A stretch of DNA of 3,977 nucleotides from a virus (IMGVR_UViG_2706794671_000011); one strand, 5' to 3'; positions 1 through 3,977 are shown, numbered from the stretch's first letter. The notes: generated by a model not told the origin, from the letters alone. A program made the numbers and translations.

Positions 1-33
1 TGTGCCCCCATCGCGCTGGTTAAGAAAACAAGC

Positions 34-1017
34 TCAGATTTTTTGTAAAGAATCTGTCACGCTAAAAGATGTCGAACAAAAATTAACCACAATCATCATC
101 TTTTTTGCATCAACTNNNNNNNNNNNNNNNNNNNNNNNNNNNNNNNNNNNNNNNNNNNNNNNNNNNNNNNNNNNNNNNNNNNNNNNNNNNNNNNNNNNNN
201 NNNNNNNNNNNNNNNNNNNNNNNNNNNNNNNNNNNNNNNNNNNNNNNNNNNNNNNNNNNNNNNNNNNNNNNNNNNNNNNNNNNNNNNNNNNNNNNNNNNN
301 NNNNNNNNNNNNNNNNNNNNNNNNNNNNNNNNNNNNNNNNNNNNNNNNNNNNNNNNNNNNNNNNNNNNNNNNNNNNNNGTCATTACCGTCAAGATAAGCC
401 ACCTCAATTGTGTCCGTTCCCTGTGCTGAAAGCATGTACCATTGCTTATCACTGACTTCATCAAGGCGGGGATCGACAATAATATCCAGTTGTTTGTGGT
501 ACGGGTTATATGAACCACTGTTTGTATCGGCACCGAAAGGCGTGGTTGAGTTAACCATTTGCAACGCTCTGTCTTCCAGAGCCGCAGGAACAAGAAGGAA
601 TTTTGGCACAATATTCAGCACCTCACCGTTTTCATCCCTCTGTGTGCGCATTGCACGGCGTGCAATGCCAAGCCCTGTAGTGCTGACTCCGTTATCAATA
701 TCATTTCCGTGTTTTTTGCTGAACAGCGGTATACCGTCAGAAAGCTTTGTGTTTCCTGTCAGCACCAGATGAACCAGATTACCCACCGTTCTGGCGGCTG
801 CTCGCCCCATTGCCTGTGGGATAACTGTTAACTGATTCAGGTCATCGTTAATAATCGCCTGTCGGGTAATGCTGAAAATATTTCCGTAAGTTGCCAGCGC
901 GATTGGTTCGCCACGGTCACTGGTGGTGATGTATTTATATTCCGCGCCTTCCGGCACTTTGTTTAATGTAGAGAAGCCATTCAGGCCAACACGACGTGCC
1001 TCATGGAAGTTTGACAA
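34..1017 (-). CDS. Putative phage major capsid protein; N-terminal ~213 aa visible (379-1017), middle masked by Ns, C-terminus uncertain
   Basis: Long minus-strand ORF directly downstream of the prohead protease gene, the canonical position of the major capsid gene. Codon usage is protein-like. The frame has no ATG or GTG for the first ~70 codons; the first possible start is TTG at 1015-1017 with AAGG 4 nt upstream. Frame continuity across the 263-nt N block (116-378) cannot be verified, so the stop at 34-36 is provisional. Confidence 0.55.
   Translation of the reverse strand: MSNFHEARRVGLNGFSTLNKVPEGAEYKYITTSDRGEPIALATYGNIFSITRQAIINDDLNQLTVIPQAMGRAAARTVGNLVHLVLTGNTKLSDGIPLFSKKHGNDIDNGVSTTGLGIARRAMRTQRDENGEVLNIVPKFLLVPAALEDRALQMVNSTTPFGADTNSGSYNPYHKQLDIIVDPRLDEVSDKQWYMLSAQGTDTIEVAYLDGNDXXXXXXXXXXXXXXXXXXXXXXXXXXXXXXXXXXXXXXXXXXXXXXXXXXXXXXXXXXXXXXXXXXXXXXXXXXXXXXXXXXXXXXXXVDAKKMMIVVNFCSTSFSVTDSLQKI
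116..378. other. N-masked block (263 nt) inside the capsid ORF
   Basis: Run of n characters; no sequence information available. Confidence 1.
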
Positions 1018-2126
1018 TGAACCTTTTTTCGTCCACTGGCGGAACGTTTCGCCGCTGTGTTCACGGATTTTTCAGCACCACCAGCAAGGATATAAGTAAA
1101 ATCGCTGCTGCTGTGGGTGAATGCCGCGTTTACTATCTGCGAGCGTGTGCTGTAGCTGCCTGTGCTTATGCCGCGATGGGTTAATGATGCCTGTGCCATA
1201 TCGAAAAGGCTCATCATGGCGTAAGGGTTGCCGCGTTCTGCCTGTTCATGTCCCAGACGCGCATTAAGCCCCTGACGCATTGCATCGCCGGTTATGTTGC
1301 CGTTATCCGTGTACGCGTAGTAAAGATTTGCGGGGGTGGTTTTGTTTGTCGGTGTCGATTCTTTACCCATAGTGAGTAAAAGGCGTTCGCGTGCATCCTC
1401 AACGCTACAGCCTGAATCAGCAAGACAACTTATAGCCAGGTCGTTATATCTTCCATTGAACGTGCCAAACAATTCACGTATCCCGTTGAGTCGTTCCTGT
1501 TCTCCGCTGCCAGTTTTCTGGCTGATCATGCTTTTAATATTTTCCGGCATATTCGAAAAATCTCCGATTCGTTTTGATTCAATTCTGGCCATTGCTGTAA
1601 TCGCGGGTATAACCTCATCTGCGAAGCCATTAGCCTTACACTCATTGCCATCCATCCAGGTTTCCGCCTCCATCATGGCGGTGATTTCCTGTTTGCTCCT
1701 GCCCGTTCTTCCGGCGTAGGTTTCCGCCATCGTGTCGCCCAGCTTGTCCATCAGGTCAGCAAAGCGGCGAACGTCGCCCGACACTCCGGCAGTAACACCA
1801 CGGGGGGCATGTATCATCATCATCGCGTTTTCAGGCATAACGATGTGATCGCCACACATGGCAATAAACGAGGCCATAGAAGCCGCCATGCCTTCAATGT
1901 GTACAATTTTCTTTGCCGGATGATTTTTCAGGGCGTTATAGATAGCCAGCCCTTCAAAGATGTCGCCACCAGGTGAATGGATGCGAAGATGGATTTCAGG
2001 CACATTACCGCACGCGTTGATCTCGTCAGTAAGTGCCGATGCTTTTACACCGTACCCGCCGATCTCGTCATAAATGCGTACATGTACAACATCAGCCATA
2101 GCCTTAATGGAAAACCATGTTTTCAT
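981..2126 (-). CDS. ClpP/S14-family prohead (head maturation) serine protease with ~190-aa C-terminal scaffold-like or capsid-N-terminal extension
   Basis: 381-aa ORF with ATG at 2124-2126 and a strong SD (AGGAG, 7-nt spacer). The N-terminal half has the ClpP-like core, including HSPGGDIFEGLAIYNAL and GMAASMASFIAMCGDHIVMPENAMMMIHAPRG, which resembles the ClpP active-site serine region (CMGQAASMGAFLL...VMIHQPLGG). The start overlaps the stop of the upstream small ORF as ATGA (2123-2126). Confidence 0.85.
   Translation of the reverse strand: MKTWFSIKAMADVVHVRIYDEIGGYGVKASALTDEINACGNVPEIHLRIHSPGGDIFEGLAIYNALKNHPAKKIVHIEGMAASMASFIAMCGDHIVMPENAMMMIHAPRGVTAGVSGDVRRFADLMDKLGDTMAETYAGRTGRSKQEITAMMEAETWMDGNECKANGFADEVIPAITAMARIESKRIGDFSNMPENIKSMISQKTGSGEQERLNGIRELFGTFNGRYNDLAISCLADSGCSVEDARERLLLTMGKESTPTNKTTPANLYYAYTDNGNITGDAMRQGLNARLGHEQAERGNPYAMMSLFDMAQASLTHRGISTGSYSTRSQIVNAAFTHSSSDFTYILAGGAEKSVNTAAKRSASGRKKVHCQTSMRHVVLA
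1023..1029 (-). other. A_AAA_AAG slippery heptamer in phase with the protease frame; candidate -1 programmed ribosomal frameshift site or indel-prone A6 homopolymer
   Basis: Minus-strand protease codons are CGA AAA AAG GTT (plus 1023-1031), so the heptamer is in X_XXY_YYZ phase. A -1 slip then reads GGT TCA TTG TCA AAC = G S L S N, which is exactly the capsid ORF frame. Confidence 0.35.
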
Positions 2127-2317
2127 AGCCAGGCTCCTAACGTTGCCCTGTACCAGTATTCAACCGCGCTTCTCGCAATCTGCCCTTTCGTGGGTACTGG
2201 CATTCCAGGGTGATGACTTTTAATGAACTGCTGATAGCGTTCGAGCTTCTCCATAGTTCCGGCGTCTATGTGCACTGTTGCACTTTTATCCGGTTTTCTG
2301 CTGTTGTTCTCTGGCAT
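2123..2317 (-). CDS. Small hypothetical protein (64 aa from ATG at 2315-2317; 75 aa if the upstream ATG at 2348-2350 is used), first gene of the head operon
   Basis: Minus-strand ORF. GGAGG (plus 2325-2329 as CCTCC) sits 7 nt upstream of the internal ATG, whereas the first ATG at 2350 has no SD. The stop overlaps the protease start (ATGA), implying translational coupling. No recognisable family by eye. Confidence 0.5.
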   Translation of the reverse strand: MPENNSRKPDKSATVHIDAGTMEKLERYQQFIKSHHPGMPVPTKGQIARSAVEYWYRATLGAWL

Positions 2318-2348
2318 AAGTCTGCCTCCGTTATGATTAACGGGCATC

Positions 2349-2420
2349 ATTATTGATCGATAAAACTGGTAAATAAATCATTTTCTATCTAAAAATCAGA
2401 TTATGTGTTTTCTGATTTTT
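2349..2420 (-). promoter_or_regulatory. Candidate activator-dependent promoter for the head operon: -10-like AATAAT (minus, plus coords 2349-2354), no convincing -35, with a perfect inverted repeat centred about 60 bp upstream
   Basis: On the minus strand AATAAT matches TATAAT 5/6. The -35 position (TTTATT) is poor. The perfect dyad AAAAATCAGA-N10-TCTGATTTTT (2391-2420) lies where class I / late-gene activators typically bind. Confidence 0.25.
2391..2420. repeat. Perfect 10-bp inverted repeat AAAAATCAGA / TCTGATTTTT with 10-nt spacer
   Basis: Read directly: 2391-2400 aaaaatcaga, 2411-2420 tctgattttt (exact reverse complement). It sits in the intergenic region between the SSB and head operons. 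The stem is AT-rich, so it is more likely a protein-binding operator than a strong terminator. Confidence 0.6.
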
Positions 2421-2438
2421 GTCATACCAGCAAAAGAA

Positions 2439-2467
2439 TTGACTAATTATTGCCAAGCCAGCACAAT
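2439..2467 (+). promoter_or_regulatory. Weak sigma70-like promoter candidate on the plus strand (TTGACT -17 bp- CACAAT)
   Basis: -35 TTGACT (2439-2444) matches 5/6, the spacer is 17 bp, and the -10 CACAAT (2462-2467) matches 4/6 with the conserved A2 and T6 present. It would initiate near 2474, about 40 nt upstream of the terminator hairpin. Confidence 0.25.
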
Positions 2468-2511
2468 TAAGACTCATCATTTCGGTAGTGGCAGTATCCT
2501 TTGTCGCTGAC

Positions 2512-2549
2512 AAAGCGCCTCCGGTGGCACCATCGGGGCGCTTTTTTTT
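2512..2549 (+). terminator. Intrinsic-terminator-like hairpin: AAAGCGCC stem, 17-nt loop, GGCGCTTT stem, followed by a T8 run (plus orientation); A-tract/stem/short U-tract in minus orientation
   Basis: 2512-2519 aaagcgcc pairs with 2537-2544 ggcgcttt, with Ts through 2549. A short 7-bp inverted repeat CTTTGTC-gct-GACAAAG (2499-2515) sits immediately upstream. Confidence 0.5.
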
Positions 2550-2559
2550 GCGCCTGTTT

Positions 2560-2831
2560 NNNNNNNNNNNNNNNNNNNNNNNNNNNNNNNNNNNNNNNNN
2601 NNNNNNNNNNNNNNNNNNNNNNNNNNNNNNNNNNNNNNNNNNNNNNNNNNNNNNNNNNNNNNNNNNNNNNNNNNNNNNNNNNNNNNNNNNNNNNNNNNNN
2701 NNNNNNNNNNNNNNNNNNNNNNNNNNNNNNNNNNNNNNNNNNNNNNNNNNNNNNNNNNNNNNNNNNNNNNNNNNNNNNNNNNNNNNNNNNNNNNNNNNNN
2801 NNNNNNNNNNNNNNNNNNNNNNNNNNNNNNN
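2560..2831. other. N-masked block (272 nt) covering the C-terminal part of the SSB-like gene and adjacent sequence
   Basis: Run of n characters; no sequence information available. Confidence 1.
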
Positions 2832-3150
2832 GTCGCGCCGTTCTGGCACTGATTACACTGTCTGCGATAACCTGCCAGCCCTGCCGCGTTTCTCCGTTCT
2901 GGCCTGTCCACTGGCTTACCTGCATGTTACCCGCCACGCTCACCAGCTCGCCTTTCTGGTGCTTTGCCAGTGCGTCAGCCTGTCTGCCAAACGCCAGGAC
3001 GGATAACCATATCGTCGCCGTTCCGTCATCTGCCTGGCTGCACGGCAGGGGAACCGCCATACTCGCCATCGTCATTTGCGTACCCTTGCTGGTGGTCTTT
3101 AACTGCGGGTCAGCCACCAGCCGCCCGTAAGCCGCTATCTGTGCTGTCAT
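2832..3150 (-). CDS. Single-stranded DNA-binding protein-like (OB-fold) protein, N-terminal ~106 aa visible; C-terminus lies inside the N-masked block
   Basis: ATG at 3148-3150 with GGAG upstream. The N-terminus MTAQIAAYGRLVADPQ...WLSVLAFGRQADALAKHQKGELVSVAGNMQVSQWTGQNGETRQGWQVIADSV aligns by eye with the SSB OB-fold pattern of E. coli SSB (GNLGQDPEVR...[50 protein letters not shown]). The ORF-track extension to 2467 passes through Ns and is not trusted. Confidence 0.65.
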
Positions 3151-3392
3151 GCTGTCTGCTCTCCGGTTTTAACGTTGATGGTTGTCACCTGTTCCGCTTC
3201 GGCAATCTCCCGTTCTGTCAGCGTGGCAAAGTTTGCCGCCGTCGTGGTCATGAATGCGCTTATCAGTTCGGGATGTGCTTTCGCGTATCCTTCCCCGGCG
3301 TTGCGGTCGATGATTTTTATCGCCACCCTCAGCCAGTGTTCTGTCAAATCAAGGGCGTGAGATTGTGGTTTTTTGGCGTGCTTCGTTGTCAC
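3147..3392 (-). CDS. Hypothetical 81-aa protein, GTG start, translationally coupled to the SSB-like gene
   Basis: GTG at 3390-3392 is preceded by GAGGT with a 7-nt spacer. The stop TGA overlaps the SSB ATG (ATGA at 3147-3150). An in-frame stop lies 13 codons upstream of the GTG, so the start is constrained. No family recognised. Confidence 0.5.
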   Translation of the reverse strand: MTTKHAKKPQSHALDLTEHWLRVAIKIIDRNAGEGYAKAHPELISAFMTTTAANFATLTEREIAEAEQVTTINVKTGEQTA

Positions 3393-3592
3393 AGGCTTTA
3401 CCTCACAGCAATAAAATAAAATTTTTGCATTTTAACCCTTCACCTGTTCACCTTTTGCAATTTTCCCTTTTTATTCATGATGTTAATGGGTTAACAGTTT
3501 CACAAAAACTATTCACCAACTGTTCACCACTGTTCACCCTTAAAGCTCAATAAAGAATCAAAAAGGTGAACAGTGAATAGTTTGGTGAACAG

Positions 3593-3619
3593 TTCATAAA
3601 TAACTGTTCACCCTATAAT
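3593..3619 (+). promoter_or_regulatory. Sigma70-like promoter candidate embedded in the origin (TTCATA -15 bp- TATAAT) with an iteron in the spacer
   Basis: Perfect -10 TATAAT at 3614-3619. Weak -35 TTCATA at 3593-3598 with a short 15-bp spacer. Iteron TGTTCACC (3605-3612) lies between them, so initiator binding would occlude it. It points antisense to the 93-aa ORF. Confidence 0.3.
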
Positions 3620-3643
3620 ATACTGATATAAAAGACATTTATT
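3613..3643. other. AT-rich core flanked by iterons; candidate DNA unwinding element of the origin
   Basis: cctataatatactgatataaaagacatttattg is markedly AT-rich and bracketed by the forward iteron at 3605 and the reverse iterons at 3648/3658. Confidence 0.35.
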
Positions 3644-3695
3644 GCAGGGTGAACAGTGGTGAACAGTTATTCCATAAGTTTAATTTTTTCCATCG

Positions 3696-3977
3696 TCATT
3701 TGTGACCTATTGCACATGATGGCATCCAGTCTTCTGAATCCTCTGTCAGGGTCACATTTGAACGCAAACCGTGCTTCGTTTTCCGTTTCATATACTCCCT
3801 GCCATATTCCGCCATTGCCCCCGGCATATCTTTACCGAAGCGCGTCAGTGTTACAGGTTTACCGAATCCGTGTGCCCTCATATATGCCAGATAGGCGTGA
3901 TAAAGATACCTGCGCGGACTGAACGGAATAATTTCGGCATTACCCACTAACAGACCATCACACATTACCGACGACAT
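3696..3977 (-). CDS. Hypothetical 93-aa protein immediately upstream (in transcription order) of the iteron array; possibly an iteron-binding replication protein or the C-terminal part of a larger one
   Basis: Minus-strand ORF with ATG exactly at the window edge (3975-3977) and stop TGA at 3696-3698, 30 bp from the first iteron. Whether the ORF extends beyond the window cannot be determined. No family recognised. Confidence 0.45.
   Translation of the reverse strand: MSSVMCDGLLVGNAEIIPFSPRRYLYHAYLAYMRAHGFGKPVTLTRFGKDMPGAMAEYGREYMKRKTKHGLRSNVTLTEDSEDWMPSCAIGHK

Follow-up and report, generated by a model that had tools for sequence, protein, structure and literature searches.

Evidence that a 3,977-nt viral sequence is part of a decayed phage-inducible chromosomal island of Shigella sonnei carrying a protease–capsid fusion gene

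We analyzed a 3,977-nt stretch of DNA attributed to a virus (IMGVR_UViG_2706794671_000011; hereafter the window, meaning the whole stretch at its full length) and conclude with high confidence that it covers two-thirds, on the right-hand side, of a phage-inducible chromosomal island (PICI) located at the cspD–clpS site of Shigella sonnei and belonging to the EcCICFT073/EcCIIHE3034 family of classical Gram-negative PICIs. The first-pass annotation of the window had described a P4-type iteron origin and a gene for a single-stranded DNA-binding protein (SSB) upstream of, and in the same orientation as, a protease–capsid module, and all of these features are indeed present, on the minus strand (Table 1). 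It was also right that no terminase, portal, lysis, or tail genes intervene between the two modules; two small open reading frames (ORFs) and a cos-like site masked by Ns lie there instead. The protease and the capsid protein, which had been taken for the products of two genes, are encoded by one fusion gene that has been split by a 13-bp deletion.

Positions 2832–3977 of the window are the same at every base across the aligned stretch as S. sonnei Ss046 (CP000038.1), including a 1-bp insertion at the primase stop codon, and the window is enclosed by the SSON_0868 interval of that genome (922309–936578), which is entered as a PICI of 14.3 kb in the supplement of Fillol-Salom et al. 2018 (ISME J, PMC6092414). 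The same supplement lists cspD–clpS as a PICI attachment (att) site with the core ATGATAGTTAT, which we found outside the window, in the spacer between the last island ORF (93 aa) and clpS of a sister locus (L002; fetched loci carry L numbers). In all eight loci returned for the 81-aa ORF of the window (L009–L016), clpS adjoins the island; those that reach the left flank start at cspD, and a tyrosine integrase gene adjoins cspD in L009–L015. The island gene order is int, insertion sequence (IS) element IS1 in some cases, alpA, small ORFs, a gene for a 99-aa DUF4222 protein, primase, origin, 81-aa ORF, SSB, fusion gene, and 93-aa ORF, followed by clpS. The Phage_AlpA gene stands directly after int, nearly all called island genes lie on one strand, and the DUF4222 protein corresponds to the RgdR family (PMC3378721). 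The cspD–clpS islands (L009–L016) are about 10 kb long, or 14.3 kb where IS elements have inserted, and the same island structure recurs at three different att sites.

The proposal that the window belongs to a phage satellite, and not to a piece of a complete prophage, is borne out by these eight loci, all of which contain int, alpA, primase, origin, SSB, the capsid gene, and the 93-aa ORF and are devoid of terminase, tail, and lysis genes. More broadly, no terminase, portal, connector, tail, or lysis genes appear in the gene lists of the fetched islands (L009–L016 and the other full-length copies). The flanks yielded the integrase, alpA, and primase genes and, in an intact relative (L013, CP179997.1), flanking repeats approximately 9.9 kb apart; in place of a complete tailed prophage they hold the host genes cspD and clpS. 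The element is not the new hybrid satellite that had been envisaged, because its plan, with pri-rep first, an iteron origin next, and a capsid homologue among the later genes, is the published one of classical PICIs (PMC6092414) and the Ss046 island was listed as early as 2018. The family, the architecture, and the listing of the Ss046 island are thus already known, a statement that applies to these and not to functional study of the cassette described below.

The replication module begins at the right edge of the window with the end of a primase gene. The remnant (3977..3696) is 51% identical to residues 690–771, the C-terminal end, of the P4 alpha protein, and the intact primase of the same lineage (L013, 596 aa) shows 50% identity to alpha residues 320–771, which we take to be the helicase and origin-binding parts, with a different N-terminus. 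The 93-aa remnant is the origin-binding end of a PICI Pri-Rep primase-helicase. Immediately downstream, the octamer TGTTCACC occurs in 8 exact copies within 3445–3665, in both orientations, against 0.11 expected by chance (none of 200 shuffles reached 8 copies). The field also holds two copies with one mismatch, has a G+C content of 25%–43%, groups its copies around AT-rich spacers, and is nearly invariant among six related islands. The annotated “ori type 1 repeats” of P4 are this octamer, which is present in both the crr and ori regions of P4, and the iteron field of crr lies directly 3′ of the alpha gene, matching the order of primase and iterons in the island. The islands EcCICFT073 and S19-651 have the same layout with another octamer, TGTCTACC/GGTAGAYA, in EcCICFT073 over a field of 290 bp. 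An origin directly 3′ of pri-rep, with two sets of iterons around an AT-rich region, has been shown experimentally to function in EcCICFT073 (PMC6092414). The TGTTCACC iterons are one of several Pri-Rep/iteron specificity types found in PICIs and do not signify membership of the P4 family. A scan of a whole intact island against Rfam returned only spurious matches to plant microRNAs over inverted iterons.

Downstream of the replication module, a Clp_protease domain extends from position 2126 downwards, followed in a different frame by a Phage_capsid_4 domain that runs into the second N mask. Megablast against complete Escherichia coli genomes matched 379–2559 in 209 genomes with identities of up to 89%, and the annotation of these genomes gives it as one gene, for a [quoted passage not shown]; an intact relative scores 863 bits on the NCBIfam model NF045540 (cutoff 475). 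Alignment with E. coli S19-651, in which the gene is a single ORF of 629 aa, shows that 13 bp are missing from the window at approximately 1060–1062, which shifts the frame: the protease frame stops at 983..981, and the capsid part is read in the −1 frame as far as a stop codon at approximately 261..259, within the N mask (the stop was read in L002). The exact deletion junction is found in eight fetched loci of the S. sonnei type (L002–L004, L009, L010, L012, L015, and L016), including S. sonnei Ss046, and is absent from relatives with an intact 626-aa gene (L013 and L014). The protease and capsid of the window are therefore one gene, here a pseudogene of the NF045540 family.

The ratio of nonsynonymous to synonymous substitution rates (dN/dS), computed for one pair with the deletion excluded (window 379–2126 versus the E. 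coli S19-651 copy, L001 13872–15761), is 0.14. The ClpP Ser (GMAASMAS) and His (MMIHAP) motifs and most of the capsid core residues are retained relative to the phage homologues, and together with the low dN/dS this indicates that the gene is under purifying selection in intact islands. In the same pair, dS is 0.07 in the protease part versus 0.77 in the capsid part; the gene is thus a mosaic of a nearly identical protease part and a diverged capsid part, suggesting recombination inside the gene. Aligned over 99% of its length, the island fusion shares 50.8% identity with the head gene of the Shiga toxin phage CP-1639 (Stx1); its identity to that of an O157 lambdoid prophage is 54%. The linker between protease and capsid in the island fusion is about 35 residues shorter than in the phage homologues.

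Both N masks of the window cover cos-like sites, which form a 129-nt direct repeat (71% identical, 2530 nt apart). Site 1 lies just after the SSB terminator and site 2 just after the stop codon and terminator of the capsid part; their sequences were read from L015 (10704–10810 and 13221–13327) and L002 (2110–2215). The second mask, of 263 nt, is exactly as long as the corresponding stretch of L002. The cos core, CACGGGGCGGG..CGCGGAAAAA(A/G)GCG, resembles lambda cosN. The nonamer ACGGGGCGG is found twice in each PICI examined; in three fetched lambdoid phages it marks the position of cos, immediately ahead of the packaging genes (terminase, or a DUF1441 ORF by terL). For the alignment, the lambda ends were joined as a cos junction and the phage cos regions added, because MAFFT with separate ends was uninformative. 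The cos copies of the window type align almost base for base with the cos of phage CP-1639 and of an O157:H7 prophage, whereas the two copies of EcCICFT073 both match lambda cos. No Rpp/TerS-like gene is found among the called genes of the window-type cassette, and its cos regions are so similar to phage cos, being nearly identical, as to suggest that they could be recognized directly by the helper terminase. The copy after SSB is nearer to the cos of CP-1639 and the copy after the capsid gene to that of the O157 helper prophage; given these different affinities, the island may be packageable by two helper lineages.

A PICI of the same type is present in E. coli O157:H7 H6437 (L018, NZ_CP038339.1 1881717–1905909), inside the terL gene of a lambdoid prophage that has a fusion gene of its own (54% identical) and a matching cos; this copy is a helper-embedded PICI. 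The resemblance of both the cos sites and the fusion gene to those of lambdoid phages of the enterohemorrhagic E. coli (EHEC) type points to such phages as the likely helpers. By these comparisons, the type of capsid gene and the type of cos on a single backbone vary together with that of the presumed helper, and the segment comprising cos-like site 1, the 75-aa ORF, the fusion gene, and cos-like site 2 constitutes a module matched to that presumed helper. Helper induction, packaging, and transfer are predicted from the cos match to EHEC lambdoid phages, the likely helper type, and from the embedded copy. In an intact island, following the published family, a helper lambdoid phage would turn on alpA, after which Int would excise the island of approximately 10 kb. 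The C-terminal domain of Pri-Rep would bind the TGTTCACC iterons just 3′ of its own gene, open the AT-rich spacers, and replicate the island with the aid of the island SSB. The helper terminase would then cut the resulting concatemers at the island cos sites, and the DNA would be packaged into helper-built particles.

Several points weigh against this interpretation of the window as a cos-packaged classical PICI. The cos sites themselves are N-masked in the window, so that their sequence had to be taken from Ss046 and sister contigs. In addition, the mask at 2560–2831 spans 272 nt versus 330 nt between the same anchors in Ss046, a shortfall of 58 nt that would be explained by a mask of altered length or by a 58-nt deletion in the source. 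In the literature found, there is no explicit description of a protease–capsid fusion cassette in a chromosomal classical PICI, and our inferences for this variant on helper dependence, cos use, and the function of the fusion gene draw on its relatives and on sequence similarity.

What the fusion gene contributes to the island is a question on which the published record bears in part. In EcCICFT073, which has genes for a capsid protein and a decoration protein, deletion of either did not relieve interference with lambda (PMC6092414); 21 of the 29 reference Gram-negative PICIs carry a capsid gene, which is dispensable for transfer (Mageeney et al. 2023, PMC10111431). A speculative and rather unlikely idea is that the fusion protein, with its retained protease motifs and a linker about 35 residues shorter than that of the helper, may co-assemble with, or replace, the helper capsid protein on the helper portal to give satellite-sized shells, the cassette being swapped as a unit to match the helper lineage. 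Were this true, such co-assembly would represent a step between classical and capsid-forming PICIs. The capsid gene of EcCICFT073, which is of the lambda type and not homologous, was dispensable for both transfer and interference.

The copy in S. sonnei is degraded. An IS3-family element, seen in L010 and L015, lies 6 nt past the right edge of the window (3977) and splits the primase gene in Ss046, and an extra A at the primase stop (window 3696–3712) changes the protein end from ..SCA to ..SCAIGHK. IS1 lies between int and alpA, and an IS21 element cuts the last ORF in Ss046. Taken together with the frameshift, the IS insertions represent the usual gene decay of Shigella. This copy, in which an IS element interrupts the primase gene and the fusion gene is frameshifted, is a fossil; it has most likely lost both autonomous replication and the ability to produce the fusion protein. 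The frameshift could alternatively be viewed as functional, with −1 slippage at A_AAA_AAG (window 1029..1023) giving both a protease–scaffold product and the full fusion, so that the gene would not be dead. The 13-bp deletion does place this heptamer in the zero frame 30 nt downstream (CGA AAA AAG), a −1 slip there would enter the capsid frame exactly, and the allele with the deletion is fixed across many independent assemblies of S. sonnei. However, the heptamer is out of that frame in intact genes (ACG AAA AAA GGT), so that the signal is not conserved, the slipped product would have the invariant segment LAGWEHSGETFRQWT replaced by unrelated residues, and the same island carries the IS elements in the primase gene, near int, and in the last ORF. 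We consider programmed frameshifting very improbable and rejected it, since the heptamer is in frame only through the deletion and the product loses invariant residues; its zero-frame position is probably a coincidence.

Among the alternatives for the island as a whole, that of a capsid-forming PICI (cf-PICI), to which the first-pass annotation had likened the window, implies that the element makes its own small capsids, packages itself, and takes only tails from a helper. The replication module does abut a capsid gene, and the cf-PICI-like vB_KppS-Ant (LR881103) shares the primase type and has 8 copies of TGTTCACC directly upstream of its capsid module. However, cf-PICIs are defined by genes for capsid, protease, portal, head–tail connectors, HNH, TerS, and TerL (10.1101/2022.09.08.507074), of which the island has the fusion alone, and in complete islands the fusion gene is followed by a single 93-aa ORF and then the att site. 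With no portal, connector, or terminase gene in any full-length copy, we rejected this assignment on gene content and give it very little credence. Membership of the P4 family proper, with a P2-type helper, control of capsid size by Sid and Psu, and an optional plasmid state, would account for the iteron octamer, for a field placed directly after the primase gene as in crr, and for the 50% identity to alpha; the historical annotation of the island reads “P4 phage remnants” (PMC3378721). Against it, neither Pfam matches nor product names point to sid, psu, delta, epsilon, or cI among the called genes of the full islands (no dedicated Sid/Psu profile search was made), the primase N-terminus is unlike that of alpha, and the cos sites are of the lambdoid and not the P2/P4 type. 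The authors who described the PICI family set these islands explicitly apart from P4 (PMC6092414). We therefore regard P4 membership as highly unlikely and rejected it on gene content as well. Finally, among phages, the fusion has its nearest homologues in the head genes of complete lambdoid (Stx) phages, as would be expected if the window were a fragment of a complete tailed lambdoid prophage in which rearrangement had joined the head region to replication genes. Such an origin is next to impossible given flanks consisting of the host genes cspD and clpS, with the integrase at the far end, a length of about 10 kb with the same structure at three att sites, and an island without tail, lysis, portal, or terminase genes; it was rejected on flanks and gene content. 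The classical PICI remains the interpretation that we adopt below.

The remaining genes of the window divide between the PICI backbone and the capsid cassette. The SSB has 140 aa in the unmasked Ss046 copy, where it ends in the canonical ..DNIPF tail with a terminator after the stop codon (read in L015), and it scores 60.5 bits on TIGR00621 (cutoff 53.95). The 81-aa ORF lies between primase and SSB in 8/8 loci (L009–L016), its exact protein is on record in 4612 collection blocks, and it is a conserved PICI backbone gene. The 93-aa last ORF, beyond the window, is likewise assigned to the backbone because it is 75% identical to its counterpart in EcCICFT073. The 75-aa ORF, called as a 64-aa gene in L010 and L012, shows no similarity to the small ORF at the equivalent place in EcCICFT073 and was for this reason assigned to the capsid cassette; it is specific to cassettes of the fusion type. 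Its product has no Pfam or NCBIfam match and, judged by eye (..ATVHIDAGTMEKLERYQQFIK..), resembles a ribbon-helix-helix DNA-binding protein. In the spacer between cos-like site 1 and the capsid cassette, the plus strand carries a promoter-like sequence (TTGACT-17-CACAAT, 2439–2467) and, after two hairpins, a strong terminator that ends in a U8 tail (2511–2550; −32 kcal/mol, z = −2.6), both of them antisense to all the island genes. The terminator is conserved in E. coli S19-651, and the 2439–2550 region has no Rfam match; the region is a candidate for encoding an antisense RNA (about 75 nt) or for terminating transcription in both directions.

Table 1. Features of the 3,977-nt window
Feature	Coordinates	Strand	Evidence and remarks
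Primase C-terminal remnant, 93 aa	3696..3977	-	Pfam Pox_D5, E = 2.6e-11
PICI replication origin, iteron field	~3440..3670	strandless	8 exact and 2 one-mismatch copies of TGTTCACC
81-aa ORF	3147..3392	-	phrog_1231, E = 4.7e-49; stop overlaps SSB start
SSB	2728..3150 (end coordinate approximate; 3′ part N-masked)	-	PF00436, E = 1.9e-16
N mask, 272 N; in Ss046, SSB 3′ end, terminator, and cos-like site 1 (core CACGGGGCGGGCGGTTCGCGGAAAAAGGCG)	2560..2831	-	
75-aa ORF (64 aa from internal ATG)	2123..2350	-	phrog_4934, E = 1.3e-46; stop overlaps protease start (ATGA)
ClpP-like prohead protease/scaffold linker/HK97-fold capsid fusion, pseudogene	259..2126	-	CLP_protease, E = 3.7e-33; Phage_capsid_4, E = 1.5e-38
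N mask, 263 nt; capsid 3′ end, stop, terminator, and cos-like site 2 (~240..135; core CACGGGGCGGGTCGGCGCGGAAAAAAGCG)	116..378	-	

As a discovery, the island carries little weight, because its family, its architecture, and this very Shigella element are already in the literature. The value of the analysis lies rather in annotation: the S. sonnei “cryptic P4-like prophage” is a PICI that has decayed, and the separate protease and capsid ORFs in it are one pseudogene. The island also offers a clean example of capsid-gene and cos types varying with the presumed helper on a single backbone, and the subfamily, through its intact relatives and not this fossil, is a reasonable place to test the role of capsid genes borne by PICIs.

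Comparison with known systems places the island as follows. The fusion head genes of CP-1639 and the O157 prophage are homologous to that of the island over the full length (51%–54% identity), with conserved ClpP Ser/His motifs and capsid core, but the island gene, unlike the head genes of these EHEC lambdoid phages, stands alone, without portal or terminase neighbors. P4 shares with the island the octamer TGTTCACC, the position of the iterons directly 3′ of the primase gene, and 50% identity to alpha over the helicase and origin-binding parts, whereas the island is without called sid, psu, delta, and epsilon genes and has lambdoid cos sites, a capsid homologue, and a different primase N-terminal domain. 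The cf-PICI EcCIEDL933 (Alqurainy et al. 2023, preprint 10.1101/2022.09.08.507074) has a similar int/alpA/rep backbone with a capsid module after the replication module, but cf-PICIs encode portal, connectors, HNH, TerS, and TerL, none of which the island has, and build their own capsids. The cf-PICI gene set is also found in LR881103.1 (L007, “Escherichia phage vB_KppS-Ant,” 16.5 kb), deposited as an induced phage, which encodes int, primase, capsid, portal, connectors, TerS, and TerL with no tail set; its DNA is 71.6% identical at the primase end, and its 8 copies of TGTTCACC lie between the primase and the capsid module.

Closer to the island is the helper-embedded H6437 element (Mageeney et al. 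2023, NAR Genom Bioinform, PMC10111431), which has the same primase type, iterons, 81-aa ORF, SSB, fusion, and 93-aa ORF, with approximately 89% DNA identity over the capsid region; it sits inside terL of its presumed helper, whereas the copy in the window occupies a chromosomal site and has a different integrase target. The backbone is that of the classical Gram-negative PICIs, namely, EcCICFT073, EcCIIHE3034, and relatives (PMC6092414; 2019 Mol Cell, PMC6739421). EcCICFT073 runs from int and alpA through DUF4222, primase, iterons, a small ORF, SSB, PerC, a small ORF, capsid, decoration, and two ORFs to the 93-aa ORF, with its backbone in the same order as in the island, and EcCIIHE3034 shares the cspD–clpS att site and the backbone but has a capsid cassette of the lambda type. 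The reference islands carry a lambda E-like capsid gene, a D-like decoration gene, an Rpp/TerS-like gene, and lambda-type cos sites, whereas the island has the fusion, cos sites of the EHEC-phage type, and no Rpp; its iterons are TGTTCACC versus TGTCTACC/GGTAGAYA in EcCICFT073, and its S. sonnei copy, unlike the reference islands, is disrupted by IS elements and a frameshift. The classical PICIs and the island have in common unidirectional genes and two cos sites each.

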